This document shows positions 5,886 to 63,411 of a stretch of 64,000 nucleotides of DNA, in pieces. The DNA comes from Escherichia coli O157 typing phage 13. The stretch lies in the sequence record KP869111. One strand, 5' to 3'. A model generated the notes under the pieces. The model searched no databases. It saw only the letters and a program-made list of their open reading frames with translations, and had not been told where the DNA came from. Position 1 is the stretch's first letter; each line of letters begins with the position of its first letter. Position numbers and translations under genes: made by a program.

Positions 5886-5914
5886 ATAATATCAAATCCA
5901 GAGGAGAAGTAAAC
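5886..5914 (-). promoter_or_regulatory. early-type sigma70 promoter, -35 GTTTAC / -10 TATTAT, with inverted repeat pairing to the downstream SD
   Basis: minus strand reads GTTTAC-TTCTCCTCTGGATTTGA-TATTAT...CCAGAGGAG; arms CTCCTCTGG / CCAGAGGAG. Confidence 0.55.
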
Positions 5915-5918
5915 AACT

Positions 5919-6338
5919 TTATGCGAAAGCAGCTGGGCTATATTTTTTAATTTGGAATTCAGGAACTACCATGAACTGTCCAGCGAAAACAATGTTATAA
6001 AGCTTAACACCATCTTCTACCCAACGGTCGCTAATAAATCCGGCGATTTGCTTAGTTTTCCACGGTGTTCCATCAGTTGCCGCAGCAATAGTGAATTCAT
6101 GGTCTTTTTCAACAGAAACTGATCTGCATAATCCCCATTTGAACGCTTTTTCTTCCGGTTCAATGAATTGGCTTTTAACGTAACCAATGTTACCATCAGC
6201 GTCACGAACTTTAACTTCGTTACGTCCAAAAACAGGATCACTCACAGAAAGAACTTCAACCAACTTCCCGGCAACTTTAGAGCGAGAAGCAACAGATACA
6301 TATACGTAATCACCTGTAGAGAGATTTACAATATTCAT
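5919..6338 (-). CDS. hypothetical protein, member of 3-gene tandem paralog family
   Basis: 139 aa; C-terminal motif ISDRWVEDGVKLYNIVFAGQFMVVP shared with the next two genes. Confidence 0.6.
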   Translation of the reverse strand: MNIVNLSTGDYVYVSVASRSKVAGKLVEVLSVSDPVFGRNEVKVRDADGNIGYVKSQFIEPEEKAFKWGLCRSVSVEKDHEFTIAAATDGTPWKTKQIAGFISDRWVEDGVKLYNIVFAGQFMVVPEFQIKKYSPAAFA

Positions 6339-6347
6339 AATAATTCC

Positions 6348-6803
6348 TTAAGCTTTACGAGGAGACACATAGCGAGTGATTTCAGATTCTTTAACAACTC
6401 GGAAGTCACCTAAGAATACGATATTGTATAACTTTTCACCATCTTCAACCCATTGGTCACTAATGAAGCCACACATGGTATCAGTTGTGCTTGGATAGCC
6501 GTATTCATCGATGAAGTCAAATTCTTTATCAGTCTGGAATTCAACACCTTTACACAAGGCCCATTTGAACTGTACATTAGGTTCAGTAGAAGCAAAATGA
6601 GCGCTCACATGAGTTTCCAAGAATTTAGGACTTACGTAAGCATATTGAGTATCCTGACGTCCAAAACTAGGAATGATTCGAACTTTAACTTCTTTAATAC
6701 GTCCCATGCCATTTGTGCGAAGTCCGACAACTTCAACCAGACGACCTGCGGCTTTAGAACGGGATGCAGTTGATACACGCTTAATTTCACCAATAGTAAT
6801 CAT
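6348..6803 (-). CDS. hypothetical protein, tandem paralog family member
   Basis: 151 aa; C-terminal ISDQWVEDGEKLYNIVFLGDFRVV. Confidence 0.6.
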   Translation of the reverse strand: MITIGEIKRVSTASRSKAAGRLVEVVGLRTNGMGRIKEVKVRIIPSFGRQDTQYAYVSPKFLETHVSAHFASTEPNVQFKWALCKGVEFQTDKEFDFIDEYGYPSTTDTMCGFISDQWVEDGEKLYNIVFLGDFRVVKESEITRYVSPRKA

Positions 6804-6831
6804 AATTTCTCTCTTTGTTTAAATTGAATTC

Positions 6832-6860
6832 ACTATACTCCATCCATCCTTGGATGTACA
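6832..6860 (-). promoter_or_regulatory. early-type promoter (TGTACA -35, TATAGT -10) with conserved CCAAGGATGG spacer
   Basis: minus strand TGTACA-TCCAAGGATGGATGGAG-TATAGT. Confidence 0.45.
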
Positions 6861-6863
6861 ACA

Positions 6864-7358
6864 TTAATTTAGAATATTAACCACAGCACTACGTGGAACT
6901 ACACTAAAATCACCTGCATGAACAACGTTCAGAAGTTCAACACCGTCTTCAATCCACTGGTCAGTTACCCAGCCACTTACCGGTCCAGCGAATGGTCGAC
7001 GAATTGAAACTGCTTTACACAACAAGTCTGTAGGCTCGATAGGTTTAACTAAAGTACCGTACATAGAAGCGATGTCCATATCAAAGTGGAGACCATCTTT
7101 AACAGGTGCTTCTCCAATCAACAGTTCAAAGTCGGTGCTTGGAAGGGCGGTAGTAGAAATTGTACCATATGAATTTTTAATTTCTAAGAATAACCAAGGG
7201 CCTTCAGCTTGTTTGATGAAGTTAACAATAGTGAAACTATTACCTTGAGTGGCACCTAAAATTTCACAAAACTTTTCATAAGCTCGCACTGAAGCACCGT
7301 ACCAGTTGATTTGTTTTTCGTCTTTCAGGATGTAAGTGGCCGTAGTATTGATATTCAT
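6864..7358 (-). CDS. hypothetical protein, tandem paralog family member
   Basis: Track ORF begins with TTG inside the promoter; first ATG (MNINTT...) at 7358; C-terminal VTDQWIEDGVELLNVVHAGDFSVVP. Confidence 0.55.
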   Translation of the reverse strand: MNINTTATYILKDEKQINWYGASVRAYEKFCEILGATQGNSFTIVNFIKQAEGPWLFLEIKNSYGTISTTALPSTDFELLIGEAPVKDGLHFDMDIASMYGTLVKPIEPTDLLCKAVSIRRPFAGPVSGWVTDQWIEDGVELLNVVHAGDFSVVPRSAVVNILN

Positions 7359-7388
7359 AATGGTTTCCAGTTTGGTTAAGATAGAAAG

Positions 7389-7418
7389 ATTATACTCCAA
7401 CCATCCTTGGTTGTAAAC
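7389..7418 (-). promoter_or_regulatory. early-type promoter GTTTACA-N17-TATAAT with conserved spacer ACCAAGGATGGTTGGAG
   Basis: near-identical copies at 49400-49429 and 50419-50448. Confidence 0.55.
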
Positions 7419-7423
7419 TGTTT

Positions 7424-8101
7424 TTATCGCTGTTTTACACTTAACGGGTCAGGATTCTCAGGGACATCTTCAAGGCCAAGCGCATAACGCTGAGCATATT
7501 TTAACATCAAAATATCTTTAGCACAATCATGAATACTATCATGGGCAACGAATCCTTTTAGCGTACCCATCGGTAATGGACACATACTTAATCCTCGTGT
7601 CAACGAGTAAGCTTCGATTGCTGTACGAATATCACGTTGAGCCCAGAATTTAACCGGTTCTAATTTATCAGTATCAATATCTGGTTCAAGAACACCTTCA
7701 TCACGATAGAGGTCACGAATCAAATCGACCAAGATCGGGAAGTCAAAGCTCATACCACGGCACCACATCTGTGATTTCCATTGGTCAACTTTATTAGCTC
7801 GACAATAATCTAAAAAGATTTTAATGCCTTCAAGCGTAGTGACATCGTCTTCAGACGGAGCCAAGTTTTTACGTGCTTCAGCCGATTGTTCTTTCCACCA
7901 TTTCATAGTGGATTTAGCGAAAACTCGCTTCCCTTTCTGAGAAGCTAAATTAAATTTAATTCGCTTACCTCGTTGAACAAGTTCTTCAAATGATTCAACA
8001 ACTTCAGGGTCGGAATTATATGCAATAACCGCAAGGTCAATAACAGCCGCTTTTGATGTATTGCCGAATGTTTCAAAGTCTATAATAACATCAGTGCTCA
8101 T
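7424..8101 (-). CDS. dexA: exonuclease A (3'-5' DNA exonuclease)
   Basis: 225 aa; MSTDVIIDFETFG...DSIHDCAKDI matches T4 DexA as recalled. Confidence 0.85.
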   Translation of the reverse strand: MSTDVIIDFETFGNTSKAAVIDLAVIAYNSDPEVVESFEELVQRGKRIKFNLASQKGKRVFAKSTMKWWKEQSAEARKNLAPSEDDVTTLEGIKIFLDYCRANKVDQWKSQMWCRGMSFDFPILVDLIRDLYRDEGVLEPDIDTDKLEPVKFWAQRDIRTAIEAYSLTRGLSMCPLPMGTLKGFVAHDSIHDCAKDILMLKYAQRYALGLEDVPENPDPLSVKQR

Positions 8102-8110
8102 AATTTTCTC

Positions 8111-9424
8111 TCAAATAAAATGGACGTCAAAACGACCACGAGTCGTGCCGACATACAATAACTGTTTAGCTAATTCTGAATCGGCATAATGGATACACGG
8201 TGTATAAACAAAGGCCGTGTCAACAGACATACCCTGGGCCTTATGGAAGGTTGATACAGGTAGTGCCTTCACCTTAGTGAACATACGTTTAGCATCCCAG
8301 AATTCGCTCCATGGAGCTTTACCGCCTTTATTCCAGAATTTATATGTTTCTGCGGTCTTAGCCAAAAACAAATTGAATTTATAAAGCTCTTCTTCAGAAG
8401 AAATAACCTTTATATCTTCACGGATGTATTCTTCATCATCACTATATGTTTCTACTGTAAGATTCCAGTATCGTATCATATATTCGCCTGAAACACCGCG
8501 TGCTTTAACGAATGTAGACGTTTCTACAGCATCTCGAATACGAACGAATTGCCCGTTATTGAAAAGCATTTCGGTCATATTTTTGCCATCTAGCTTATAT
8601 GTCTTAGTAAATGGCTCTTGTAGAACAATGACTTCGTCTTTAATAAATGGCTTTTCTGTTTCGAGAAGTTTTCGGCGAATAATTGAATTTAACTTGTCCA
8701 CCGACTTATTTGTGAATGCCATCATTCGATTTTCGAAAAGGTCTTCAGGAGTTTTAACGACGTTAAAATAGTTCATCATATACGATTTAAGGTCTGTATA
8801 TCCATGAACACCGTGCCCATCAACTACTTTATCGTAAATCCATTTGCCATTACGAATATCAGTCGCAACATCAATAATTGGCGCATTGCTACGTTTAACT
8901 TCTGTAAGGTTGCATTGCACGAAGTCTTTGTGAGTGAAGAAAGGACTTAGATACGCAGTTGATTCGCCTGGGTCTACCGGACGAATCTGGCATCGGTCGC
9001 CGATTCCAATTACTGTGCACCATTTAGGGATACTAGCTAACATTATTTTAAACAGAGGACGGTCGCACATTGACGCTTCATCAAATAACAGTACACGACA
9101 CAAGGCTAAGTCGGGAACCTTTTTCTGTTCAAACAATACGTTTTCTTCGTATGTAGTTGGGTTGATTTTAAGAATGCTATGAATAGTCGATGCTTCTTGA
9201 CCCGCAAGTTTGCTTAGAACCTTTTTAGCAGCATGTGTAGGGGCTGCTAAAATAATACCTGATTCTCCGGCAGAAATAAGAGCTTCAACGATGAATCTAG
9301 TAAGGGTTGTTTTACCTGTACCAGCAGGCCCATTAATAGTTACGTGATGTTTCTTTTCTTTAATAGCGTTCATAACAACGTTGAAGGCGTTTTTCTGGCC
9401 TTCAGTCAAATCATCAAATGTCAT
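8111..9424 (-). CDS. dda: Dda DNA helicase (SF1B)
   Basis: 437 aa; MTFDDLTEGQKNAF...GPAGTGKTT Walker A; very close to T4 Dda as recalled. Confidence 0.9.
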   Translation of the reverse strand: MTFDDLTEGQKNAFNVVMNAIKEKKHHVTINGPAGTGKTTLTRFIVEALISAGESGIILAAPTHAAKKVLSKLAGQEASTIHSILKINPTTYEENVLFEQKKVPDLALCRVLLFDEASMCDRPLFKIMLASIPKWCTVIGIGDRCQIRPVDPGESTAYLSPFFTHKDFVQCNLTEVKRSNAPIIDVATDIRNGKWIYDKVVDGHGVHGYTDLKSYMMNYFNVVKTPEDLFENRMMAFTNKSVDKLNSIIRRKLLETEKPFIKDEVIVLQEPFTKTYKLDGKNMTEMLFNNGQFVRIRDAVETSTFVKARGVSGEYMIRYWNLTVETYSDDEEYIREDIKVISSEEELYKFNLFLAKTAETYKFWNKGGKAPWSEFWDAKRMFTKVKALPVSTFHKAQGMSVDTAFVYTPCIHYADSELAKQLLYVGTTRGRFDVHFI

Positions 9425-9732
9425 CGTAAAGTCCCTGCAATTGGAATACTAACAATACGGCCTGTGTCCAGGATTCGTTGATACAATCTTTGCGTCTCCG
9501 CATCTAGTTTAACGTGTTTCATTTCAAGCTTATTAAACCAGAACTTACGCGGAGTTTCGACCATTCTTAGAACTCCCATTTTTAAATCTGTTTTATACTG
9601 TGTTTTCAAAGTATCGAAAACTTTATCTGCAATATCCTTTCTAAAAAATACTGCAGGACGATGCTCATCAAGTGGAACCGGGACAGTAAATCCTTCCATA
9701 TCTCGATAAACTATTGCATATACATAAACCAT
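9421..9732 (-). CDS. hypothetical protein (dda.1 position)
   Basis: 103 aa; stop overlaps dda ATG (ATGA); AAAGG SD. Confidence 0.5.
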   Translation of the reverse strand: MVYVYAIVYRDMEGFTVPVPLDEHRPAVFFRKDIADKVFDTLKTQYKTDLKMGVLRMVETPRKFWFNKLEMKHVKLDAETQRLYQRILDTGRIVSIPIAGTLR

Positions 9733-9734
9733 AA

Positions 9735-10481
9735 TTAACCTTTAATCAGTTGGAATAATGATGCGCTAAGTGGTAAGCCACGTTTCAATTTTAATTTACC
9801 AATGAAACCAATCTTTTCAAAACGTTGCAGACCTTGGATAACTTTATCATATGTATCGAAAAGCGATTCAGCGTCAGTTAATTTAGTTTTAGTTTTCCAG
9901 TCAGAGCCTTTAAGAAGAACGTTGAGTTTAGTAAGTTCATGGCCTTCTGCTTGATGTGAGCCATTAATGCGTGCTTTCAAAGCAACAATTCTAAGTTTAG
10001 ATTCGTTAGATAAAGGTTGATTTTTCATCATGTTCGCCATATGCTTAACACGATTTTCACGTTTTGCTCGGATTTTTAAAATAGTACCATAAACCTTTTT
10101 GATTTGGGCCCATTTCTTCTCGTCGAGATTAAGTTTCTCTACTTTACGGGCCGAAGGATTGGCGATACGTCTTGCAATGGCATCGCGTTTCCCAATAAGC
10201 TCTTCTAATGTTAAATCAGAACGAGCGGTGTTATATTTTTTCTTAACCGGGATAACATTACCTTTAATGTAGCCTATATCATTATTAAAACGTTCTAAGG
10301 ATAATTTCTCACCTTCAACAGAGTTATTAAAAGATTCACCTGAGTAAGCGCAGACCTTTTGATCAAGAATGTTTTTAAGGTAATTAAAGTCTAAGTTAAA
10401 ATCCTTAGAGCGTCTCTTCGCAGAAGCTCTGGTGTGGTCAAGACGACGATTGATTTTGTTAATTTTATTATTTGATAACAT
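9735..10481 (-). CDS. hypothetical basic protein, Srd-like by synteny only
   Basis: 248 aa; AGAGGA SD; occupies the T4 srd position between modA and dda.1. Confidence 0.4.
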   Translation of the reverse strand: MLSNNKINKINRRLDHTRASAKRRSKDFNLDFNYLKNILDQKVCAYSGESFNNSVEGEKLSLERFNNDIGYIKGNVIPVKKKYNTARSDLTLEELIGKRDAIARRIANPSARKVEKLNLDEKKWAQIKKVYGTILKIRAKRENRVKHMANMMKNQPLSNESKLRIVALKARINGSHQAEGHELTKLNVLLKGSDWKTKTKLTDAESLFDTYDKVIQGLQRFEKIGFIGKLKLKRGLPLSASLFQLIKG

Positions 10482-10634
10482 AATATTTTCCTCTGTCTTA
10501 CGGACGTTAAGGTCATTTAGCTGATAAGCTTATAATATCATGCCCTCAGGTAGTGTACACTCTTTTTTCGTAAAATGCTTTAATTTTTTATGTGTTATAA
10601 TGGTTCTGAGTTCCATCCGGTTATTCCAATTCAG

Positions 10635-11243
10635 TCAGTAACTGACAATAGACAGATTCCAGATTGTATAACGTCCATCTTGAATAATAGAATCTACACG
10701 CAGTGTAGTCCCTATAGGGAGCATAAATTCACATTCGTCAGATATAAGTCTAGCATTAGACCGTCTTGTCGCTTCAGGGAAAGCTCCATTGAACTCACAA
10801 GATGGCGCAGCCAGAATCATGTTAAGCATATGTTCACGGAAGTTGAAAGCAAATGGTGCATCTTTGATGCAGAACATATTAAATGTTCCGTAAAAATTAT
10901 ACGAAGCAAAGTTACGTGCTACACCGAACACTGGACTGAAGCTCATTACTCTGTCAAATTTAATAATACTACCAATGCCTTTATCATCAAGTGTAGCCAT
11001 AGTTTTCTTAGAGATTCCACGATACATTGTCTCAGGAACAGAAGACGACCAATTTCTACGAACAATTGCACTTAAATCTTTTTGGATGCTATCAGGCTTG
11101 TTTTCCATACACTGCCATAGTACACTTTGTTCAATGTCACTGAATTGCTCATCGATTTTGTACTGAAGCATATCTTGATAATCCGGGCATTGAGCACGAC
11201 GAACCATTTCTTCAATTTCACACTCGTTATACGGCATAAACAT
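10635..11243 (-). CDS. ADP-ribosyltransferase, ModA/ModB family
   Basis: 202 aa; SSVPETMYRG motif paralogous to next gene; AGGAGA SD; synteny with T4 modA. Confidence 0.6.
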   Translation of the reverse strand: MFMPYNECEIEEMVRRAQCPDYQDMLQYKIDEQFSDIEQSVLWQCMENKPDSIQKDLSAIVRRNWSSSVPETMYRGISKKTMATLDDKGIGSIIKFDRVMSFSPVFGVARNFASYNFYGTFNMFCIKDAPFAFNFREHMLNMILAAPSCEFNGAFPEATRRSNARLISDECEFMLPIGTTLRVDSIIQDGRYTIWNLSIVSY

Positions 11244-11300
11244 TTAGGTTTCTCCTGTGGTTGATAAAGGTATAGTATCATCATCGGAAGAGTTTGTACA

Positions 11301-11882
11301 CTAAAAATTCAACATTTTCAAATGAATGATTTTGTATAATCGAGATAAAGGGTCATATTCTAAGTCTTCAATTTCCACAATCTCAAATCTAGAGATACCT
11401 GAGACCATGTACTCTTGTTCAGATTCAATCATATCTAGGACGTCAACACGCGTTTCTTCCATAACATGCTTAGGGTTCTTTCCGGCGAGTACAATGTTAA
11501 TCATGTTTTGGTAGTAATCAAAAATGAATGGAGCATTCCTGAGACTAAGAATAGTGTACGTCTGATACTCCCAACTCCCAGAGAATTGACGAGCTGTACT
11601 GAAATCAGTTGTGAACGATGTTACTCGTCCAGGAGACCAATGGCATCCAACAGAAAGAAGGGAAAGACGTTCTACTTCTTCTGGAGTTACACCACGGTAG
11701 AGTTCTACTGGTACTGTAGAAGACATATGCTTACGAACAAGATGGTCTAATTCATAGTGGAAATCCGGGTCTTCCTTAGAATCGGTGCAAGCCCAGAGAA
11801 TGTTTTGTTCTTGGCGGGTGAATTTGCTATCAATCAGATTTGTTAGGTATTCGCGTTCTTGAAGTTCAGATTGACATGTCAT
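11301..11882 (-). CDS. ADP-ribosyltransferase, ModA/ModB family (second paralog)
   Basis: 193 aa; STVPVELYRG motif; GGAGG SD inside promoter hairpin; synteny with T4 modB. Confidence 0.6.
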   Translation of the reverse strand: MTCQSELQEREYLTNLIDSKFTRQEQNILWACTDSKEDPDFHYELDHLVRKHMSSTVPVELYRGVTPEEVERLSLLSVGCHWSPGRVTSFTTDFSTARQFSGSWEYQTYTILSLRNAPFIFDYYQNMINIVLAGKNPKHVMEETRVDVLDMIESEQEYMVSGISRFEIVEIEDLEYDPLSRLYKIIHLKMLNF

Positions 11883-11925
11883 GATAGACCTCCATTTAAA
11901 GATAAGCCTATCATAACACGAGAGG

Positions 11926-12102
11926 AGGGAATGTAAACTACTTTTTAAGCTTTCCTACTAAAGGTCCATCAGGACCAGGTTGTTCTAACATGAATAACGA
12001 TGCTTTAAAAAGCAATGCCAACCCTTTCACCATTCGATACCATGTCTCAAAGTCTTTTTCCTTGATTTCTAGTAAGAATTTCTCTTTCAATTTCTCTTTC
12101 AT
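11926..12102 (-). CDS. small Lys-rich protein (about 58 aa)
   Basis: Own translation MKEKLKEKFLLEIKEKDF...; ATG overlaps upstream stop as ATGA; not in track; coordinates approximate. Confidence 0.3.
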
Positions 12103-13427: not shown

Positions 13428-13456
13428 CAAAAAAAAAGGAATCCCGAAGGATTCCT
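13428..13456 (-). terminator. rho-independent terminator after soc (GGAATCC-UUCG-GGAUUCC + U9)
   Basis: perfect 7-bp stem, UUCG tetraloop, 9-T run on minus strand. Confidence 0.7.
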
Positions 13457-13464
13457 TAAATTAT

Positions 13465-13703: not shown

Positions 13704-14042
13704 TTAACTCCTTTGTTGTTTAATTACAGGTGTATTTATAATGAATTCCTGTGGAACAGTAAAATATCCGAATTTAGCTAATACAACAACATCACCATTA
13801 ATGATTACTGGAGAATAATCATCTGAGTTATTAAATTTCCAATGAAGCCTGTCATCATATCCATCAGAACCAAATGCTCGAGTAGCCGGTCTCCCGGCTT
13901 TTTGCCATGCATAAAAATCAAGTTTCATTTGCAACCCAATCAACCATATGTAGATGGTCTGATAATTGACTAACATGCTGAAGCTGATTAGACAGGAGCT
14001 TACAAATAAGCTCACTGTTATCATTTTTAAATAGTTGGTCAA
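13704..14042 (-). CDS. hypothetical protein with hydrophobic N-terminus
   Basis: 112-aa ORF between 56 and soc (position of segF in T4, but no GIY-YIG features); start uncertain. Confidence 0.4.
   Translation of the reverse strand: MTNYLKMITVSLFVSSCLISFSMLVNYQTIYIWLIGLQMKLDFYAWQKAGRPATRAFGSDGYDDRLHWKFNNSDDYSPVIINGDVVVLAKFGYFTVPQEFIINTPVIKQQRS
13733..13740 (-). promoter_or_regulatory. T4-type late promoter TATAAATA upstream of soc
   Basis: exact TATAAATA on minus strand about 30 nt upstream of soc ATG. Confidence 0.5.
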
Positions 14043-17588: not shown

Positions 17589-17651
17589 TTTAACTCCTTA
17601 GTTGATTTGATAGGACTACTATACTATAGTCCATCTATAATGTAAACAAGT

Positions 17652-18401: not shown

Positions 18402-18590
18402 TTATCGAAAATCTGCTTCGAAAACTTTCTCGTCATTAACAAATGCTTTAACTAATGCTTTGTTCACTTCAGCAAGTTGTACCGTAACCCACTCGATTTC
18501 TTCGCGATCACCTGATAACATGATATCTTTAGTGAACATCTCACCGCTTTTAAACCAACCGATAAAAGTAACTTTAGTTAATTTGCTCAT
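18402..18590 (-). CDS. hypothetical small protein
   Basis: Start at ATG (MSKLTKV...) overlapping upstream stop as ATGA. Confidence 0.4.
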   Translation of the reverse strand: MSKLTKVTFIGWFKSGEMFTKDIMLSGDREEIEWVTVQLAEVNKALVKAFVNDEKVFEADFR

Positions 18591-18904
18591 ATTTCCTCGC
18601 AAAATGCCCATTCAGCGTGATAAACTGTAGCGCCTTTAGTATCATTCATTTGAACTACATCTACCGGAGAAATTACTCGATAGAGACGTGGTTCACCTCC
18701 ATAAGAGCGTGCTGCTCGTCCTGCATAAATCTTTGCTAAACCGATATCTTCAGTAAAGAATACACGATCCAAGTTTTTCTTACGTCCAGTTTCAGACAGA
18801 ACTCCTGTTTCTTCAGGAGGACAAAGCATGTTTTCGATGTTAGCTGAACTACTTGAACCGTGATAAAAAATCTTAAATTCTGCTTTACAATCAATGGTTT
18901 TCAT
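18587..18904 (-). CDS. hypothetical protein
   Basis: 105 aa; SD GGAG lies in downstream arm of promoter hairpin. Confidence 0.5.
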   Translation of the reverse strand: MKTIDCKAEFKIFYHGSSSSANIENMLCPPEETGVLSETGRKKNLDRVFFTEDIGLAKIYAGRAARSYGGEPRLYRVISPVDVVQMNDTKGATVYHAEWAFCEEI

Positions 18905-18930
18905 TTTGTTCTCCGGTAGTTGATAGGTCT

Positions 18931-18959
18931 ATAATAACACAACTACCGGAGAAGTAAAC
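18931..18959 (-). promoter_or_regulatory. early-type promoter GTTTAC-N17-TATTAT flanked by 12-bp perfect inverted repeat (CTCCGGTAGTTG / CAACTACCGGAG)
   Basis: arms at 18911-18922 and 18940-18951; downstream arm contains SD GGAG. Confidence 0.6.
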
Positions 18960-19334
18960 TTAAAAACGTAATTTAGATATATCTGCGTTGATTTCGTTTT
19001 GGTTTGCGTCGTATGCAATTAAACGAACCGCTTTAGATGGGTCATTCAATGCATAGAAATGATGGAACATTGCTCGAACGATATCACCATTTACGAGTTC
19101 TACCTGGATAGGAGAACCTTTTTCGAGTTGGAAATGTTCATAAGCTTTGATGGTTCGCAGATAATCAAGTTTTTGATTTCCAGCTCCAACAATTTGTACG
19201 ATACGTTTGCCCATGTTTTCCATACGAGATACAATAGTTTTAGGAGCAAGAATAACGTAGGTTGCCAGTGGAGAAACTACTTCAACAGTTGTGTTTTCGG
19301 TGATTGCAGTAAAAATTGCTTGAGACATATTCAT
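18960..19334 (-). CDS. hypothetical protein
   Basis: 124 aa; preceded by GTTTAC promoter at about 19345-19395. Confidence 0.5.
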   Translation of the reverse strand: MNMSQAIFTAITENTTVEVVSPLATYVILAPKTIVSRMENMGKRIVQIVGAGNQKLDYLRTIKAYEHFQLEKGSPIQVELVNGDIVRAMFHHFYALNDPSKAVRLIAYDANQNEINADISKLRF

Positions 19335-19400
19335 AATGTTTTCCTCTTGGTTGGTGTAAGTACATCATATCATGCCTAGAGGAAGATGTAAACCCAGAAA

Positions 19401-39967: not shown

Positions 39968-40039
39968 AAGTACCTCTTGGCTCAATTCATAGGTCTATTA
40001 TATCATAATATTTAGAGACCTATCTTAAAGCACGAGATA

Positions 40040-40309
40040 CTATCGGAGCAAACAATAAGCCTGAAACACTTTTTCCATTAAACGTTTGAACTCATGGATA
40101 TCGATATAAAGCTCAGTAAGACCTGCATTATAAAGAAAATCTAAAAAGTTCTCATGTGTTTCGTTATAGTCGCCTTCGTTTAATTGAGATACATGAGTTT
40201 CCCAAAAACCAACACCTTTAACGAATGGAAAATACGTGACTTTCATGTATTCGTCAACATAAAATTCGCCCAGCTTTTCTTCAGTTATACTGATTCGAGT
40301 TAATTTCAT
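40040..40309 (-). CDS. hypothetical protein
   Basis: 89-aa ORF upstream of gene 55. Confidence 0.45.
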   Translation of the reverse strand: MKLTRISITEEKLGEFYVDEYMKVTYFPFVKGVGFWETHVSQLNEGDYNETHENFLDFLYNAGLTELYIDIHEFKRLMEKVFQAYCLLR

Positions 40310-42120: not shown

Positions 42121-42338
42121 GACTTAATTTCCTTCGCAATTGAACAGAAGATACCACGGTCACAAAGCATTTCACCAATTTCTGGATATTTGATTGAACG
42201 GTACCAAACATCCAGGCTTGAAACTCTGGTTATCTGTACTGCATTACCGTTGACAGAATAGTACTGGTCAACCTTAATTTCTTTATCTTCAATTGTCATT
42301 TTATTTTCCTCTGTGGTAGATGGTGTTAATCTTAACAT
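42117..42338 (-). CDS. hypothetical small protein
   Basis: 73 aa; GTTTAC-N17-TAAGAT promoter and AGAGGAAAA SD upstream. Confidence 0.45.
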   Translation of the reverse strand: MLRLTPSTTEENKMTIEDKEIKVDQYYSVNGNAVQITRVSSLDVWYRSIKYPEIGEMLCDRGIFCSIAKEIKS

Positions 42339-42440
42339 ATCTATCGAGGATGTAAACTGGTTTTATGAAAATATTTTTGATTTGAGAGGGGCACAAGGAG
42401 ATAGTGAAGTGAAGATTCCAATGGATTATATTAGAAATGA

Positions 42441-46157: not shown

Positions 46158-46186
46158 GATAAACCCTTACCTTAAATAGATAAGGG

Positions 46187-46194
46187 TATTTATA
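46187..46194 (-). promoter_or_regulatory. T4-type late promoter TATAAATA upstream of gene 49, adjacent to hairpin that includes the gene 49 SD
   Basis: exact TATAAATA on minus strand; hairpin CCCTTA...TAAGGG at 46163-46187. Confidence 0.5.
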
Positions 46195-49370: not shown

Positions 49371-49399
49371 AATATTTTCCTCTCGTTAAGATAGATTCA

Positions 49400-49429
49400 T
49401 TATACTCCAACCATCCTTGGTTGTAAACT
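49400..49429 (-). promoter_or_regulatory. early-type promoter, conserved copy (GTTTACAACCAAGGATGGTTGGAGTATAAT)
   Basis: identical core to 7389-7418. Confidence 0.55.
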
Positions 49430-50418: not shown

Positions 50419-50448
50419 ATTATACTCCAACCATCCTTGGTTGTACAT
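50419..50448 (-). promoter_or_regulatory. early-type promoter, conserved copy (TGTACAACCAAGGATGGTTGGAGTATAAT)
   Basis: 26-nt identity with copies at 7389 and 49400. Confidence 0.55.
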
Positions 50449-52033: not shown

Positions 52034-52091
52034 GTTTTACCTCCAGTAGTTGATAGGTCTATAATAACATAACCATAGACCTTGTAAACAA

Positions 52092-56095: not shown

Positions 56096-56259
56096 TTTAC
56101 CATACTCGTTTCAATAAGATTCACTATGCCGTTTACCATGTTATAAGTAAACATCGGATAATTGTATTGTACTACAACATAAGCGATAAGCAAAAGTTTC
56201 ATTTTGTTCTCCGTTTGTTTTGGTAGGACTACTATAACATAGTCCTACCAAGATGTAAA

Positions 56260-56466
56260 CTACCGATTGTGTTTTAAATGTTGATAAAGTTCTTCAACTT
56301 GTTTTGGGTCTAAAACAATTAGGTCATTTTCTTGGCGAAGATAAATCCATCCCTTATCCCCAGGACCATTTTTACAAAACATTGCCACCATATCATCATC
56401 TTCAGCGCTTTCAGGTAAAAGTTCAAGCACACCGTCTTCAGATTTTCTAGTATAATCGTAAAGCAT
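56260..56466 (-). CDS. hypothetical small acidic protein
   Basis: Start at ATG (MLYDYTRK) with GAGGA SD. Confidence 0.4.
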   Translation of the reverse strand: MLYDYTRKSEDGVLELLPESAEDDDMVAMFCKNGPGDKGWIYLRQENDLIVLDPKQVEELYQHLKHNR

Positions 56467-56473: not shown

Positions 56474-56653
56474 TCACATAATCTCGTTAACATACATTTG
56501 CAATTCAGTGTGGGCGTCGGCCATCTTTTTCATAGCTCTGTTAATGTCGATGTCTCCATCTTCGCACCCATGAGCATTTTCCCAATCAGATACCGCATTA
56601 GCATACTCTTCAATCAAAAACATCAACTTAGAAATCTTTTCTTTACGTGTCAT
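56474..56653 (-). CDS. small protein (59 aa)
   Basis: Own translation MTRKEKISKLMFLIEEYANA...; AGGAGA SD; GTTTAC promoter hairpin upstream; not in track. Confidence 0.35.
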   Translation of the reverse strand: MTRKEKISKLMFLIEEYANAVSDWENAHGCEDGDIDINRAMKKMADAHTELQMYVNEIM

Positions 56654-56754
56654 AGCGTTCTCCTATAGTAAGTAAGGACTACTATAACACAACCTGAGGA
56701 GAAGTAAACTGATAGATGCCAAAAAGCCCCAACCATAAGGAAGGGGCTAGTAAA

Positions 56755-57057: not shown

Positions 57058-57069
57058 ATAGGCCTCCTG

Positions 57070-57891: not shown

Positions 57892-57900
57892 AAGAGTCCC

Positions 57901-58083
57901 TTATAGTGAATTCACGTAGTCAATGAGTTCTTGTTCTTTCCTGTCAAATGATTCCAACAATGCTTGATATTCTTCATCTGTTAAAGGAGCATATTCATCG
58001 TACGCATTGGTGGCTGCTTGCTCATCCAATAGGTCATGGATAAGTTCGAATAGTTTAGCTTTCTCTTCTTTAGTTAATTTCAT
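57901..58083 (-). CDS. hypothetical small acidic protein
   Basis: 60-aa ORF. Confidence 0.4.
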   Translation of the reverse strand: MKLTKEEKAKLFELIHDLLDEQAATNAYDEYAPLTDEEYQALLESFDRKEQELIDYVNSL

Positions 58084-58307
58084 TTAGGTTCACCTTCTTT
58101 AACGAAATCTGGGTAAGGGTAAAATCCTGAGTAAAACCCTTCACCTTTATGATTGCTACAACCTTTGTTCGAACAGTAACACCAATAATCAAAATCACAA
58201 GCCATTTCGTCATTGCATAAAGCAAAAACTACAGGCCATTCGCATTTTTCGCATTTAGCACCTGTAAGAATTTTTGTTTGACTCATAACCATGTCACCTT
58301 TAAGCAA
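58080..58307 (-). CDS. small Cys-rich protein
   Basis: 75 aa with 8 Cys (putative zinc binding). Confidence 0.4.
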   Translation of the reverse strand: MLKGDMVMSQTKILTGAKCEKCEWPVVFALCNDEMACDFDYWCYCSNKGCSNHKGEGFYSGFYPYPDFVKEGEPK

Positions 58308-58510
58308 TATTCTTCTACATGTTGTTTACGGCCTTTCTTATCAATAAAGGTATATTCAACGAATGTTCCGATGTAGTCTTTATCTACATCATGTGGACTA
58401 TTAATTGGACATTTGGTACGACAAATGCGTTCCCATTGACGAATAATTACTGCCTTATTCTTTGGGTCATATGGATGTGGATAATGTATATTCATAATAA
58501 CGGTTCCCAA
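58283..58510 (-). CDS. hypothetical small protein
   Basis: 75-aa ORF. Confidence 0.4.
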   Translation of the reverse strand: MGTVIMNIHYPHPYDPKNKAVIIRQWERICRTKCPINSPHDVDKDYIGTFVEYTFIDKKGRKQHVEEYCLKVTWL

Positions 58511-58989
58511 TCAACAATCACAATTTCTAGTTTAGTGGAATACGTATCTAAAATCTCTTCGATGACATCCCAGTTTCCGCCACCGATACCTGCACCAATT
58601 CTTGGCATATAAATTACAGGCTTTGTTATCTTATTCTTTCCGAATTCATTTAATTCTATTATACAATTCATTAAAGCAGAGTACTCAAAATTAGGTCCCG
58701 GCTCAAACTGCGTATAAAGATTAAAGCAATAAGCTTTATGGGTCTTAAAATATTTTTCATAAACCGAATAAGTCCCGAGTTTAGACTCGTCTCCGAATTC
58801 GGTTTGAAGTTTATCGGCTTCCAGAATTTTTGGATAAGCCTTTGCTAATTGTCCTGCCACACCGGCGCCCATTGTATGAAAACAATTACACCCATGAGCA
58901 ATATTATTACCTTTAGAAAACAGGGCGACAATATCGCCCTTGATATAGTTTTTAATCACTTGCTGCAAGTCCTCTAGTATAAGAGTCAA
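58492..58989 (-). CDS. macro-domain-like protein (putative ADP-ribose binding / ADP-ribosyl hydrolase)
   Basis: 165 aa; motifs NIAHGCNCFHTMGAGVAGQL and PRIGAGIGGG resemble macro domain glycine-rich loops. Confidence 0.45.
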   Translation of the reverse strand: MTLILEDLQQVIKNYIKGDIVALFSKGNNIAHGCNCFHTMGAGVAGQLAKAYPKILEADKLQTEFGDESKLGTYSVYEKYFKTHKAYCFNLYTQFEPGPNFEYSALMNCIIELNEFGKNKITKPVIYMPRIGAGIGGGNWDVIEEILDTYSTKLEIVIVDWEPLL

Positions 58990-59299
58990 CTAGACGGTCC
59001 ACCATAGAATTGCATGCTGCCTTATCTTTAGGTTCCGCCACCGAGCATTCTAATATTTGCCATTTTTTATAGTATCTTTTAATTAAGGTAGACGCCTTGA
59101 ACCTACTAGACGCCCCATCTTTTTCTCCGTCTTTATACGCGTATAACAATTTTTGTGAAAAATCTACTTTACACTCTTGACTTTTACCACAATAATCAGA
59201 CGCCGTTCTGTTTGTATACTCCGTTACATCAGTATATGTAGTATTAGCAAGAGCGTTAAATGAAACCAAGCTAACTATTAAAGCCAACATTTTGGTCAT
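58952..59299 (-). CDS. secreted Cys-containing protein
   Basis: 115 aa; signal peptide MTKMLALIVSLVSFNALA. Confidence 0.4.
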   Translation of the reverse strand: MTKMLALIVSLVSFNALANTTYTDVTEYTNRTASDYCGKSQECKVDFSQKLLYAYKDGEKDGASSRFKASTLIKRYYKKWQILECSVAEPKDKAACNSMVDRLVDSYTRGLAASD

Positions 59300-59838
59300 T
59301 CTTTTATTTCCAGTAGTTTATTTGATTTAAGGTAATTAGCCTTTTCTAGGACTTCAGAAGCATATTTACTTCCAGCACTTGTCTTCCATCCCGCATTATA
59401 TGAGGATATGGCTTTTCTTATATCCCCGTTATGTATATTTAACCAATAAGAAAATTCGATATAAGCCCATCTGGCTGAATTAGACCGCTTAGATAGCATT
59501 TTCTTAATTTGGGCATCAGTCATATTATAACCAAGCTGGTTAATTCTTGCCCTCATTGTTGGTAGATAGTTTTGGAACATTCCATACGCATGGTGACCTT
59601 TCTTATCTTTAAGATTAATACCGGCAGATGATTCTTGCCATAGTATTGCGGCCATTATGTATCCAAGTCCTTTCTTATGCATATTTTCATGCGTTTTAAA
59701 TTTTCCATCCTTAGAAAACTGTTCCCCAAACTGATAAGCATAATTCAAGTTATCGAGTTGGACATTACTAAAAGTATGCTCGGAGCTATGTGCTGATAAC
59801 GAAAGAGCAAATAGACCAGCGAGTAGTGCTTTTCTCAT
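59296..59838 (-). CDS. secreted lytic-transglycosylase-like (SLT domain) protein
   Basis: 180 aa; signal peptide; WQESS...AYGMFQ resembles the SLT catalytic E-S and GLMQ motifs. Confidence 0.55.
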   Translation of the reverse strand: MRKALLAGLFALSLSAHSSEHTFSNVQLDNLNYAYQFGEQFSKDGKFKTHENMHKKGLGYIMAAILWQESSAGINLKDKKGHHAYGMFQNYLPTMRARINQLGYNMTDAQIKKMLSKRSNSARWAYIEFSYWLNIHNGDIRKAISSYNAGWKTSAGSKYASEVLEKANYLKSNKLLEIKE

Positions 59839-59846
59839 GTTTACCT

Positions 59847-60305
59847 CTAGATTTTAATCACTGCTTTAGAAGCTTTTCCTGGTAGTCGTTTACTGTTAAT
59901 AATAGCCATTCTGCATTGAAGAGTCTTCATTTTGAATGCTGGATTTTCGCGACAAACTGTAAGTCCTAACCAAAGATTTCCATCAGTTATTTCTAAACGG
60001 CCTGGGCGATATTCGACACCTTCGACAAAATCTTCATCAACATCTGGACGGGCTGGCATTGATAAAAATTCTGCAACTTCTTTAACATGATTTTTTACTT
60101 TATGAAATAATTCAAAAACGTAATTCTCATCTATTTCTCTCTGGATGGCACGATCTAAGAGATGTTGAGAATACTTGATATGAAAGCCTGGTAGTCCAAG
60201 AGACTTTGCAGCATCTTTTATACTGGCATTTATTTTGCGGAACTCCGTTTCAAAGATTCGACGGAGTTTATTGCGGCGGATAAAAACGTCTGAATTGATA
60301 GTCAT
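59847..60305 (-). CDS. regB: RegB site-specific endoribonuclease
   Basis: 152 aa; MTINSDVFIRRNKLRR...KYSQHLLDRAIQREIDE matches T4 RegB. Confidence 0.85.
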   Translation of the reverse strand: MTINSDVFIRRNKLRRIFETEFRKINASIKDAAKSLGLPGFHIKYSQHLLDRAIQREIDENYVFELFHKVKNHVKEVAEFLSMPARPDVDEDFVEGVEYRPGRLEITDGNLWLGLTVCRENPAFKMKTLQCRMAIINSKRLPGKASKAVIKI

Positions 60306-60333
60306 TTTGATTTCTCCTCTAGTTGACAGGTCT

Positions 60334-60362
60334 ATAGTAACACAACTAGAGGAGAAGTAAAC
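60334..60362 (-). promoter_or_regulatory. early-type promoter GTTTAC-N17-TACTAT within inverted repeat (CCTCTAGTTG / CAACTAGAGG) pairing with regB SD
   Basis: arms at 60315-60324 and 60343-60352. Confidence 0.55.
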
Positions 60363-60661
60363 TACTCTTTGAAAGGAATTAACTTTTTAACTGCTTTAGA
60401 TACTTCGTCACGAACCTGGTGGAAGTTCTTGAGCTGTTCAAGGCGTTGTTCGTAATACGCAATCTCATCTTCTTCAAGACAATCGTCAGCGTCTTCTTTC
60501 AGATATGCCTTGTACTCATTAAAGAGGGCCCATAGGCGGTTCTCAAAGTCATCAAGGCTTTGAATTTTCTTGTGCTTCGGAACAAGGCCAAAAGGATTGC
60601 TTTCAGTTATGCGTCGAGATGCTTCATAATGAGTTCCAAAGCCTGATAGGATTTGAGCCAT
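60362..60661 (-). CDS. hypothetical protein
   Basis: Track ORF trimmed to MAQILSG with TAATG coupling. Confidence 0.4.
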
Positions 60662-60906
60662 TAGTATTTTTCCTCTGGTTGAAATACCGCACGACAAGCC
60701 CACATACTAGCTTCCTTTAGGCGTTCTTTAGCACAGTTCAATTGGGACAAAGCTGTCAAAGCTTCAGGAGTATTCGCAGACAACGCTTCTTCCGCCAAGG
60801 CATCGAAAATAAGCCCTAATCGAACTTCTGCATCTTTAATAGCGTTCACTTTACCGATTTTATCATCGGTATGCGGCTTGTAGCCTTTGATGTCTTCAAT
60901 CGACAT
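60661..60906 (-). CDS. hypothetical small protein
   Basis: Internal ATG (MSIEDIK) with GAGGAA SD; resolves overlap with 60896..61120. Confidence 0.35.
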
Positions 60907-61120
60907 AAGGAATTTCCTCATCGGTGGCAAGGTCATATTCGACCAATTGGATAGGCTCATTAATACCATATCCACGTACAGTGATATCGGTTGTCGGATA
61001 TTTTCCAGTAATATCACCCATTCTAAATGCTTCAGTGAATGATTGCTCGCCTGAGCAACTAAACCAGGCGGCAAAACATTTTAAAACATCTTCAGACCCT
61101 TCTATAATCAATTTAGCCAT
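60896..61120 (-). CDS. hypothetical small acidic protein
   Basis: 74 aa; TAATG coupling to GrcA-like gene. Confidence 0.4.
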   Translation of the reverse strand: MAKLIIEGSEDVLKCFAAWFSCSGEQSFTEAFRMGDITGKYPTTDITVRGYGINEPIQLVEYDLATDEEIPYVD

Positions 61121-61482
61121 TATAGACTCTCAGTAAAGGTACGAGCGATAACGTCGCGCTGCTGTTCCGGGGTCAGAGAGTTAAAGCGAACTGCATAACC
61201 GGATACACGGATGGTCAGCTGTGGATATTTTTCCGGATGCTTAACTGCATCTTCCAGAGTTTCGCGACGCAGAACGTTAACGTTCAGATGTTGACCACCT
61301 TCAATTTTAACTTTAGGTTGATGTTCAATTTCAATTTCACGGGCATTCAAACCGTAGAAAATTTCCGGGTCTACAATAGCGTCTTCTTTAAAAGTCTTAG
61401 AGACGATAATCCGGGCTTGAGTACCGTCTTCAAAATAAATAGTGCCTTTATGTGCACCTTCAAGAATTTGATATGCTTTCAT
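61120..61482 (-). CDS. autonomous glycyl radical cofactor (GrcA/YfiD-like; T4 Y06I-type)
   Basis: 120 aa; C-terminal [59 protein letters not shown] with RVSGY glycyl radical motif, essentially as in enterobacterial GrcA. Confidence 0.75.
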
Positions 61483-61488
61483 ATAACC

Positions 61489-61797
61489 TCAATTAGAAAA
61501 TAAATTTATCCAAGTTTTTTCTTTAATCAAAAATGGGTCAGAACTAAACGCCATTAAACTTTGAGTGATTAATCCCTTAAATGGCCCATCAATAAATTCC
61601 ATTTTGAAATGCGGAATACTAGTCATCAACCGTGCGTTAGGAGCAGTACAAAGAACCTGCTGCCCTGCGAACGGACCTTTAGTCAAACGGTATCGTTTAG
61701 GTTTAAAATGGTAAATCTCGTAATTTTCTACAAGAGCCCTTTTATTGCATACTGGGCTGTTATAACAATATTCAAAAACTTCAATAGTGGTCATCAT
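61489..61797 (-). CDS. hypothetical protein
   Basis: 102-aa ORF. Confidence 0.45.
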   Translation of the reverse strand: MMTTIEVFEYCYNSPVCNKRALVENYEIYHFKPKRYRLTKGPFAGQQVLCTAPNARLMTSIPHFKMEFIDGPFKGLITQSLMAFSSDPFLIKEKTWINLFSN

Positions 61798-62333
61798 TGC
61801 ATTCCAATCACAAAAAATTGAGGACGAGCATTACCGCCGATGCAATATTTGCTTTTGCAGCAGTACTGTACTGTTTTAATATGGACATTGTAAATCTTAT
61901 CCATATCAGGAGCTTTAATAGGCTCGTCAATTATATACAGAATACGAGAAAGCGTTAATCCACGGAATTTAGAACCTTCATTGCCAATAAAACTACGAAC
62001 AGAATCAGTAAATAAACGGAATCGAATATCATCGCTAGAATAACGAGAAAATTCTTTTTCAATGTTACCAGCAGAAATTTTAGCATAAGCTGAAGTATTA
62101 GAAAGAACAATAACTGTTCCGCCATCATACAGCCAATTAGCAGCAAAGTTAGTCACAGCAATTGATTTACCGGATTGTCTGCCACCGTCTAAACGAAGTG
62201 TACAGTACTGCTTGAGTACGTCTTCAAACGGTGGGATATAACCGTTCTTACAAATTTCTTCTACTCTAGCATCAGAATGGTGTGTAAAAGCATTCATCAG
62301 GGATAGATAAGGTCCAGTTAAAAATGTTCTCAT
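61794..62333 (-). CDS. hypothetical P-loop-containing protein
   Basis: 179 aa; GGRQSGKS Walker-A-like. Confidence 0.45.
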   Translation of the reverse strand: MRTFLTGPYLSLMNAFTHHSDARVEEICKNGYIPPFEDVLKQYCTLRLDGGRQSGKSIAVTNFAANWLYDGGTVIVLSNTSAYAKISAGNIEKEFSRYSSDDIRFRLFTDSVRSFIGNEGSKFRGLTLSRILYIIDEPIKAPDMDKIYNVHIKTVQYCCKSKYCIGGNARPQFFVIGMQ

Positions 62334-62506
62334 TTAGTTTCTCTTTTATGTTGGGCCATTCCGTGGCACATGTTAGGTCCTTCGACTCGCTATGTAAACC
62401 CATTACCGCACTTGGGCTCGACATTATTACAGGTTGGAAAAGGTACATCACTCAGAGGACTCGACGTTCATGAGGAGAGGTTGCGTTTCCCTTTATTAGG
62501 CAAGAA

Positions 62507-62932
62507 TTATACTCTAGGCTTTTGAGCTTGTTTGGTATTGGATTCCCATGCGGCTTTGGTAATTTTGTTAGTGGCATAACCAAAGGCATTAGATAGAACA
62601 CCTTTAGAGTTGAATACATCCAATCCAATAAGTACACCGGCTGTGTTAAATTTAGGAGCAAAGTACGCATTAGTTTTAGAAAGAGCTTTTTTCAATTCNN
62701 NNNNNNNNNNNNNNNNNNNNNNNNNNNNNNNNNNNNNNNNNNNNNNNNNNNNNNNNNNNNNNNNNNNNNNNNNNNNNNNNNNNNNNNNNNNNNNAGGGTC
62801 TTGAACCAAACCATCAAAAACGCCTTTACTATTTACTTTATATGTTACTTTGGGATTTTTACCTTCTTCGATAGCAGCTTTCTGTTCCGCAGATAATGTA
62901 ACTTCAGTGATAAACTCCTGATATGTTTTCAT
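62507..62932 (-). CDS. head internal protein (IP) with capsid targeting sequence; ORF spans assembly gap
   Basis: N-terminus MKTYQEFITE is the T4 IP capsid-targeting signature; 32 codons are N. Confidence 0.5.
   Translation of the reverse strand: MKTYQEFITEVTLSAEQKAAIEEGKNPKVTYKVNSKGVFDGLVQDPXXXXXXXXXXXXXXXXXXXXXXXXXXXXXXXXELKKALSKTNAYFAPKFNTAGVLIGLDVFNSKGVLSNAFGYATNKITKAAWESNTKQAQKPRV
62699..62794. other. assembly gap (96 N)
   Basis: run of n characters. Confidence 0.95.
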
Positions 62933-62940
62933 TTTGTTCC

Positions 62941-63351
62941 TTAGTAAATTGATTTACCATAGTATTTGTACCAAGTCGGACGTTGAGCAATTTTTTCATC
63001 TAAGCGTGCTTGACTTATCGCAATGGACGCTTCGGACGGGACGTAATTATTACGAAATTCTACAGGAATGTCGGAAATATCCTGGACTGTCGTGTCCTTG
63101 ATTTTGAAACCACGTTTCAAGCATTCGGCGATTAGCTCGATTTGACGTAAACGTAAAAATTCGAGTTTGTCGTAAAAGAATGTTACGTGACCTGTGCCTA
63201 AGATAAATGTTGGAGAGATTTTAAAATCCTTTACACGTTTACCGTTTTGAACATGTTTACGGACTGCACCAAATACGCGTGGTAATTCACGATACTCAGC
63301 CATAAGATGTTGGTCGGACAGTTCAGAAACAAGTGTTAAATTGATACGAGT
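62941..63351 (-). CDS. denV: endonuclease V (pyrimidine dimer DNA glycosylase)
   Basis: [31 protein letters not shown] matches T4 DenV; start at MTRINL (track ORF extends 5 codons). Confidence 0.85.
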
Positions 63352-63381
63352 CATAATTTCCTCCAAGTAGTTGATGAATGT

Positions 63382-63411
63382 ATAGTATCAAAACTCTTGG
63401 AGGAAGTAAAC
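63382..63411 (-). promoter_or_regulatory. early-type promoter GTTTAC-N18-TACTAT with inverted repeat (CTCCAAG / CTTGGAG) around the denV SD
   Basis: seen on minus strand upstream of denV ATG. Confidence 0.5.

Follow-up and report, generated by a model that had tools for sequence, protein, structure and literature searches.

The stretch of DNA analysed here, referred to throughout as the window, comprises 64,000 nucleotides of Escherichia coli O157 typing phage 13 (KP869111) and covers the early region of an RB69-like T4-type phage (Mosigvirus, Straboviridae), in which we consider the hairpins that accompany intergenic early promoters and their capacity to bury the translation start of the gene downstream. 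A 4-kb sample of the window matches Escherichia coli O157 typing phages 3 and 6 with 100% identity, and the window as a whole corresponds to NC_041864.1, 18764-82763, save for two runs of N and one base. The genes run from rIIA through the replication genes to nrdD and regB and on to denV; all but one lie on the minus strand, and all elements discussed below are read on that strand.

A preliminary description of this DNA had claimed that a promoter motif, GTTTAC followed by TAYTAT, recurs between the genes with its spacer repeated in inverted form over the Shine-Dalgarno sequence (SD) of the next gene. The motif is real: the strict pattern GTTTAC-N16-19-TAYTAT gives 7 matches where 0.13 are expected, every one of them on the minus strand, and none of 100 shuffles reaches 7. 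With a relaxed early-promoter pattern ([GAT]T[TG]TAC, 16-19 nt, TAnnnT), where matches were kept if they lay in an intergenic gap upstream of an annotated gene, the window holds 25 sigma-70-like early promoters, each upstream of an annotated minus-strand gene and followed by an SD and a start codon. The cassettes fall in the published PeSL class (PMC2839356, PMC4122927), a context that the preliminary description had missed and that is defined by an early promoter, a stem-loop, an SD and an ATG, the stem-loop often lying between the -35 and -10 elements or over the -10 (PMC2839356).

For each promoter we calculated how much free energy it takes to hold the translation initiation region (TIR, from SD to AUG) unpaired, here called the TIR opening cost, in a long RNA spanning -100 to +30 and in a short RNA beginning 7 nt after the -10 element, which is the predicted local transcription start site (TSS); the cost in the long RNA was compared with that in 100 shuffles of the -35-to-TSS segment. 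By this measure, promoter-dependent masking of the TIR is predicted at 7 of the 25 early promoters (28%), designated below by the start of the downstream gene, where opening costs 9.6-17.9 kcal/mol in the long RNA and 1.0-4.7 kcal/mol in the short one. The predicted start falls between the two arms of the helix at all seven, so that the 5' arm, which lies wholly upstream, would be absent from locally started transcripts. The claim that the SD is free in local RNA and occluded in read-through RNA thus fits the geometry and the predicted energetics at these seven sites, which are as follows (opening costs in kcal/mol, long versus short RNA; p from the shuffles).

5857-5914, minus strand: cassette of 5859, upstream of a 174-aa gene (5335-5859); -35 GTTTAC 5909-5914, -10 TATTAT 5886-5891, predicted start ~5879, ATG 5857-5859; 5' arm TTCTCCTCTGG 5898-5908, 3' arm CCAGAGGAGAA 5864-5874 including the SD, 11 bp; opening cost 15.6 versus 1.6, p 0.01; fold z -6.6.

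11875-11938, minus strand: cassette of 11882, upstream of an ADP-ribosylase gene (11301-11882, in the position of T4 modB); -35 11933-11938, -10 TATGAT 11910-11915, predicted start ~11903; 5' arm CGTGTTATGATAGGCT 11905-11920 over the -10 and discriminator, 3' arm GGTCTATCATGACATG 11875-11890 over the end of the SD, the ATG and the first codons; 16-bp helix of -21.9 kcal/mol, z -4.47; opening cost 17.9 versus 4.7, p 0.01.

18902-18959, minus strand: cassette of 18904, upstream of a 105-aa gene (18587-18904); -35 18954-18959, -10 TATTAT 18931-18936, predicted start ~18924, ATG 18902-18904; 5' arm TTCTCCGGTAGTTG 18940-18953, 3' arm CAACTACCGGAGAA 18909-18922, 14 bp; opening cost 15.3 versus 2.1, p 0.01.

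42297-42357, minus strand: weak case, upstream of a gene starting at 42299; -35 42352-42357, -10 TAAGAT 42329-42334; three helices of 5 bp, TCCTC 42346-42350 with GAGGA 42307-42311 (SD), TAGAT 42339-42343 with ATCTA 42317-42321, and an inner TGTTA with TAACA; -12 kcal/mol, z -3.4; opening cost 9.6 versus 1.0, p 0.01.

56647-56709, minus strand: moderate case, upstream of a gene starting at 56653; -35 56704-56709, -10 TATAGT 56681-56686; helix of GTGTTATAGT 56681-56690 with GCTATGACAC 56647-56656 (start codon), or alternatively a 7-bp spacer-SD pairing TTCTCCT/AGGAGAA; opening cost 11.3 versus 3.2, p 0.03.

60303-60362, minus strand: cassette of 60305, upstream of regB (59847-60305); -35 60357-60362, -10 TACTAT 60334-60339, predicted start ~60327, ATG 60303-60305; 5' arm TTCTCCTCTAGTTG 60343-60356, 3' arm CAACTAGAGGAGAA 60312-60325, 14 bp; opening cost 15.0 versus 4.6, p 0.01.

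63352-63411, minus strand: cassette of 63354, upstream of denV (62941-63354); -35 63406-63411, -10 TACTAT 63382-63387, predicted start ~63375, ATG 63352-63354; 5' arm TTCCTCCAAG plus AGTT 63392-63405, 3' arm AACT plus CTTGGAGGAA 63358-63372, 10+4 bp; opening cost 15.7 versus 2.9, p 0.01.

The helices are built in two registers. In register 1 (5859, 18904, 60305 and 63354) the 5' arm follows the -35 directly, and 10-14 bp of the spacer pair with the SD, whereas in register 2 (11882 and 56653) the 5' arm consists of the -10 hexamer with its flanks and the 3' arm of the start codon with the first codons. The four sites of register 1 are those that the preliminary description had offered as examples, and there the inverted repeats are present as it described them, with the SD inside the 3' arm; its "12-bp perfect arms" at 18911-18951 exist and are in fact 14 bp long, and its architecture does not extend to the two sites of register 2, where the -10 region is set against the AUG. 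When the spacers and leaders of all 25 promoters were paired in every combination, the four register-1 spacers ranked their own leader 1 of 25 in both directions, and a permutation of the whole set gave p = 0.00065 for cognate pairing. The fold z-scores of these four cassettes range from -5.3 to -6.6; the only other promoter with z below -5 is 56202, folds elsewhere are weaker and about 9 of the 25 have no stem-loop. Since its fold z is only -1.2, 56653 is the least secure of the seven. Site 10481 was not counted, as its opening cost is nearly equal in the two RNAs (7.5 long versus 5.3 short) in spite of a shuffle p of 0.02.

Conservation was assessed on 38 distinct cassettes from the window, T4 and related contigs, aligned solely by two anchors, the CTCC of the spacer and the GGAG of the leader, such that pairing was not presupposed; this alignment replaced one of the regB upstream regions by MAFFT, in which the stems did not line up. 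Of its cells, 66.7% are paired against 57.4±1.2% in shuffles (0 of 500), and covariation scores 0.212, compared with 0.105 in shuffles (0 of 500) and 0.035-0.092 with slid partners. The stem extends inward past CTCC/GGAG by a mean of 3.19 bp, compared with 1.11±0.20 bp when partners are permuted. Upstream of regB, a 10-15 bp helix over the SD is found in orthologues ranging from 97% down to 56% RegB identity, with inner stems that differ: the pairing is kept in at least six lineages with different stems (CTAGTTG/CAACTAG, CTTGACTG/CAGTTAAG, CTTTATG/CATAAAG, TGTAAG/CTTACA, TGTAG/CTACA and ATCCTCTCTG/CAGAGAGGAT), two lineages have lost the helix, and in nearly every case the strongest duplex is the one between cognate partners. 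Scanning metagenomes with a RegB profile yielded only three further stem variants. At the 18904 locus the closest relative carries a compensatory change, TTCTCCAGTAGTTG/CAACTACTGGAGAA; the gene at 5859 has relatives only in near-identical phages.

For denV, T4-like contigs supplied 34 distinct upstream regions, of which 29 are predicted to be masked in the long RNA (8.5-22.7 kcal/mol) and open in the short one (1.5-4.2 kcal/mol). At least 10 different stems occur among the masked regions, in two registers: some place the anti-SD in the spacer directly behind the -35, others in the discriminator that separates the -10 from the start. The five exceptions are genomes of 345-378 kb: in four of them (L152, L155, L159 and L160) a true terminator overlaps the promoter, the -35 GTTGAC lying inside the terminator stem as in PeSLs of the RB49 type, with no TIR masking, and in the fifth no promoter was found. 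Since the register shifts while the target (SD or AUG) stays the same and the 5' arm never runs past the start, masking of the TIR appears to be the conserved property, and we regard this shift of register over a fixed target as the strongest argument that masking is what is conserved. Taken together, the comparative data favour selection for masking itself. The device is not peculiar to this phage, as the same calculation on positions 1-80000 of T4 gives masking at 6 of 23 promoters, with the following opening costs in kcal/mol, long versus short RNA.

T4 motB.2: 12.6 versus 0.3.
T4 modB: 13.1 versus 1.6.
T4 nrdC.8: 13.7 versus 3.1.
T4 regB: 12.8 versus 1.8.
T4 denV: 11.1 versus 1.0.
T4 e.8: 8.8 versus 2.2.

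The best explanation, to which we assign a probability of roughly 0.6, is that translation of these genes is restricted to locally started transcripts. It draws on the sequences themselves, the predicted energetics, the placement of the arms with respect to the promoter elements and the conservation with covariation; the start sites, the read-through RNA, the block of translation and its purpose are what we infer from these. The sites would then be T4-type early-promoter cassettes of the PeSL kind, in which -35, spacer, -10, a leader of about 20 nt, SD and ATG are packed into 55-60 nt that abut the stop codon of the upstream gene. In the subset of seven, the promoter DNA would itself house an anti-SD or anti-AUG; this would occupy the part of the spacer adjoining the -35, or else the -10/discriminator, and in every case it would precede the TSS. 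An RNA started at an upstream promoter would hold both arms and would form a 10-16 bp helix burying the SD, the AUG or both, while RNA from the cassette's own promoter would be devoid of the 5' arm and open. Translation of the gene would thus depend on its own early promoter alone, in a short pulse that ends when early promoters are shut off, and the gene would be insulated from transcription arriving from upstream. For denV that transcription would come from its immediate upstream neighbours, the genes for lysozyme (e) and internal proteins, which no terminator separates from it and which we take to be heavily transcribed, as in T4. A need for tight, early-only expression has been reported for regB (PMC3014915).

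Several observations weigh against this explanation and set limits to its reach. The remaining 18 of the 25 early promoters give no promoter-dependent masking of the TIR when opening cost is compared with shuffles, so that the device of the preliminary description is not systematic or genome-wide, and its at least about 20 sites were an overcount: 7 of the 15 sites that it named qualify, comprising its four examples and, among its 11 others, those near 11905, 42345 and 56670. The remaining eight fail in different ways. Near 5296, 17600, 52040 and 56225 a hairpin surrounds the -10 and leaves the SD untouched, near 10520, 11270 and 53530 there is no specific pairing, and the 7-bp option near 19345 does not rise above shuffles. 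Stable hairpins clear of the TIR thus occur at several non-masking promoters (e.g. 56202 and 52033), and as they are equally stable, another function for the hairpins must exist. At four promoters the hairpin lies across the -10 and ends before the SD.

5301-5320, minus strand: hairpin of promoter 5277.
17613-17632, minus strand: hairpin of promoter 17588.
52055-52082, minus strand: hairpin of promoter 52033.
56220-56260, minus strand: non-masking cassette of promoter 56202 (hairpin 56220-56251); 13-bp hairpin TTGGTAGGACTAT 56239-56251/GTAGTCCTACCAA 56220-56232 straddling the -10 (56231-56236), SD 16 nt downstream; z -5.3; TIR opening cost 3.0 versus 3.2.

Locally started transcripts would lack these four hairpins also. 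The comparative evidence has its limits as well: the aligned sequences share ancestry, so that the shuffle controls overstate independence; pairing at the 18904 locus falls to 5-6 bp in more distant relatives; and the mismatches comprise 5 G-U and 11 A-C, with no excess of G-U, by which pairing at the level of RNA rather than DNA is not demonstrated. With leaders of only about 20 nt, a 3' arm that lies beyond the start is bound to overlap the SD. For this phage, moreover, the start sites, the read-through and the consequences for translation are all predicted. Finally, at 5859, 18904, 60305 and 63354 the stop codon of the upstream gene is placed 5-10 nt ahead of the 5' arm and abuts or overlaps the -35, an arrangement (5915-5921, 18960-18962, 60362-60364 and 63413-63415, minus strand) in which terminating ribosomes could touch the anti-SD. 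Such ribosomes might partly open the helix, giving coupling rather than silencing. Translational coupling, in which the gene is translated only when its upstream neighbour is, nevertheless strikes us as improbable, given that the arm is 11-14 bp long and a terminating ribosome would extend over no more than a few nucleotides at its beginning.

The alternative with most in its favour, which we still judge unlikely, is that the stem-loops attenuate or terminate upstream transcription, as proposed for PeSLs, and serve as conserved linkers for recombination, their overlap with the SD being incidental. The very definition of the class speaks for it, as do the reduction of lacZ expression by one PeSL stem-loop, as by rrnB T1 (PMC2839356), the ranking of the cassettes as the top dispersed repeats of the window, the mosaic junction at the regB cassette, a 42-nt identity between two cassettes (both described below) and the exclusion of the SD from the hairpins at 56202, 52033, 5277 and 17588. 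As intrinsic terminators, taken here as a GC-rich stem with a loop of 3-8 nt and a T run directly after the stem, the masking hairpins are nonetheless rejected on their anatomy: their loops exceed 20 nt, their 3' arms are followed by TAATATG, CAAAATG, ATCAAAATG and ATTATG with no T tail, and none, those of 5859 and 18904 included, is matched by a consensus terminator scan, which does find a canonical terminator at 13436-13457, one of several present where the phage needs them. The 3' arms of the denV and regB orthologues, furthermore, hold the SD or AUG although stem sequence and register vary, and a recombination role is compatible with masking while leaving the covariation unexplained.

A helix over the SD could also shield its GGAG from RegB in polycistronic RNA, and so stabilise long transcripts rather than silence the gene: RegB cuts GGAG in early SDs, with a strong-site consensus of GGAGRAYARAA, and is inhibited by secondary structure (PMC3014915, PMC1702504). 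The SD context at 18904, GGAGAACAAAA, fits this consensus at 11 of 11 positions and that at 5859, GGAGAATAATA, at 10 of 11, and regB is itself among the masked genes. Against this, the sequence 3' of GGAG at 60305 and 63354 fits poorly, the register-2 helices bury the AUG more than the GGAG, and the SD of T4 denV is resistant to RegB for sequence reasons (PMC1702504) yet masked, so that shielding from RegB cannot be the general explanation. We give it little credence in that role, while the helix may protect long RNAs from RegB in addition. Least probable of all, to our minds, is an action at the level of DNA, through cruciforms or single-strand hairpins affecting promoter use, replication or recombination, or an origin of the repeats as a by-product of quasi-palindrome templated mutation. 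The almost wholly Watson-Crick stems with no G-U excess and the palindromes that other promoters carry around the -10 or in the spacer, unlinked to the TIR, would be in keeping with such an action, which leaves unexplained why the SD or AUG forms the 3' arm in 29 of 34 denV regions across two registers and why the 5' arm never extends past the predicted start; the T4 regB pairing, in addition, needs two G-U pairs in the sense RNA. The missing G-U excess and the non-masking hairpins thus leave some room for coupling, attenuation and DNA-level roles beside the restriction of translation to local transcripts.

The cassettes also behave as dispersed elements. The top dispersed repeat families of the window (D1-D5 and D7) are promoter cassettes, and of the features that characterise PeSLs we find the early promoter with SD and start, the stem-loop, the dispersed repeats and the location at a junction, the last for one cassette only. 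This is the regB cassette, which is 98-100% identical, with regB 96-99% identical, in L114, L115 and L046-L048, whose upstream 240 nt are unrelated (~53% identical), whereas L116 is 99% identical across the same 240 nt; the comparison (window 60306-60600) places a mosaic junction at the upstream edge of the cassette. In contig IMGVR_UViG_641509422_000001 (L008 compared with L036/L065), the cassettes of denV and of the 18904 orthologue share 42 identical nucleotides from GTTTAC to ATCAACT, and only the denV copy retains a complementary 3' arm, as if one hairpin had been broken when the cassettes recombined. Within the window, 18909-18959 and 52038-52089 (minus strand) have the same -10-to-SD half, TATTATAGACCTATCAACTAC[C/T]GGAG, and different spacers, of which one pairs with the SD and the other with the sequence directly after the -10; this suggests that cassette halves have been exchanged. 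Many cassettes, in T4 as well, begin their leader with ATCAAC(T/C)AC about 7 nt after the -10 (e.g. 18915-18924, 52045-52054 and 60318-60327) whether or not they have a hairpin, and this motif is probably part of the consensus of the early promoter and initial transcribed sequence. Repeat family D3 consists of a small, near-identical spacer palindrome, AACCAAGGATGGTTGGAG, at four of the early promoters that give no masking.

6832-6860, minus strand: promoter 6803, palindrome ATCCAAGGATGGATGGAG.
7389-7418, minus strand: promoter 7358.
49399-49428, minus strand: promoter 49370.
50419-50448, minus strand: promoter 50392.

The window also contains the known T4 gene 49 arrangement, which served as a positive control and was recovered by the same calculation (SD opening 7.35, z -3.6).

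46163-46194, minus strand: late promoter TATAAATA 46187-46194, overlapping the 5' arm of a 10-bp hairpin, ACCCUUAUCU 46178-46187/AGGUAAGGGU 46163-46172, which holds the SD of endonuclease VII (start 46157).

On the minus strand of the window this late promoter sequence occurs only at 13740, 46194, 53923 and 57314. In the seven masking cassettes the internal promoter is early (GTTTAC/TAnnnT), not late or middle, and no late or middle promoter within the window lies upstream of the masked genes in a way that explains the masking; the late promoters of e lie beyond 64000. Upstream of gene 55, which encodes the late sigma factor, an 8-bp long-range helix, AGUAUCUC/GAGGUACU, spans the SD (39968-40041, minus strand) and encloses a MotA-box-like GTGCTTTAA, -10-like hexamers and an inner hairpin AUAGGUCU/AGACCUAU, its z of -2.1 being modestly above shuffles. 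As to the runs of N, the one at 3942-4088 (147 N) corresponds in typing phage 6 to 70 nt including a GGGCCGAAGCCC terminator hairpin, and that at 62699-62794 (96 N) is an insertion relative to NC_041864.1 within an open reading frame, so that coordinates are shifted by -77 relative to that record before the first run and by +96 after the second.

If masking works as predicted, T4-type phages would set the timing and dose of some early proteins, among them the RegB ribonuclease, endonuclease V and an ADP-ribosyltransferase, by choice of promoter and not by terminators, which would explain how densely packed early genes with no terminators escape expression from the transcripts of their neighbours. 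RNA level would then be no predictor of protein, a matter of consequence for phage RNA-seq, and the arrangement could be useful for compact synthetic cassettes; as it is present in T4, it is directly testable there by genetics. One could also speculate, as a tentative extension that is possible rather than probable, that the cassettes form a conserved T-even-type class with translational self-insulation, in which the promoter-borne anti-SD ties competence for translation to the start of the transcript and, combined with RegB cleavage of the exposed SD, gives a brief immediate-early pulse of RegB, DenV and ModB, the context-independent output aiding modular shuffling of genes. Were the untranslated read-through RNA also a substrate of Rho, the helix would be a conditional terminator, and this would reconcile it with the "terminator" phenotype of PeSLs.

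The preliminary description had likened the cassettes to T4 genes e, soc and 49, and correctly so: for these genes and I-TevI, masking of the SD in long transcripts and its relief by a promoter inside the structure have been documented experimentally (PMC3014915), and both there and, by prediction, here the SD, the AUG or both are buried in RNA started upstream and open in RNA started inside the structure. The T4 cases, however, use late (gp55) or middle promoters, by which expression is delayed to late times, whereas the cassettes of the window use a sigma-70 early promoter with the 5' arm in its spacer or -10/discriminator and are predicted to confine expression to the earliest period. The T4 reviews consulted list no case of masking by an early promoter, and full-text literature searches found no description of a hairpin between an early promoter and the SD, although an earlier mention in older papers (e.g. 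Liebig & Ruger 1989, Miller et al. 2003) is possible. In the work on RegB and S1 sites (PMC1702504), to which several masked SDs are related by a GGAG with an A-rich tract fitting the RegB consensus, structure figures only as a reason for resistance, with no link to the position of a promoter. PeSLs, whose recombination with one another gives mini-circles and which have been interpreted as promoter-terminator modules that drive modular shuffling (Arbiol 2010, PMC2839356; Comeau 2014, PMC4122927), share with the present cassettes the intergenic early promoter, stem-loop, SD and ATG within <100 nt, the position of the stem-loop between -35 and -10 or over the -10, the repetition in variable early regions and the location at mosaic junctions. 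They differ in that the published stem-loops are terminators or attenuators, for the T4/PST pair upstream of the promoter, and in that pairing with the SD and effects on translation do not appear in PMC2839356 and PMC4122927, whose analysis did not extend to RB69-type phages; masking, if it operates, would add a translational insulator to this picture of mobile promoter cassettes. Masking by early promoters is thus a variation on two known things, the masking of T4 e, soc and 49 and the PeSLs.

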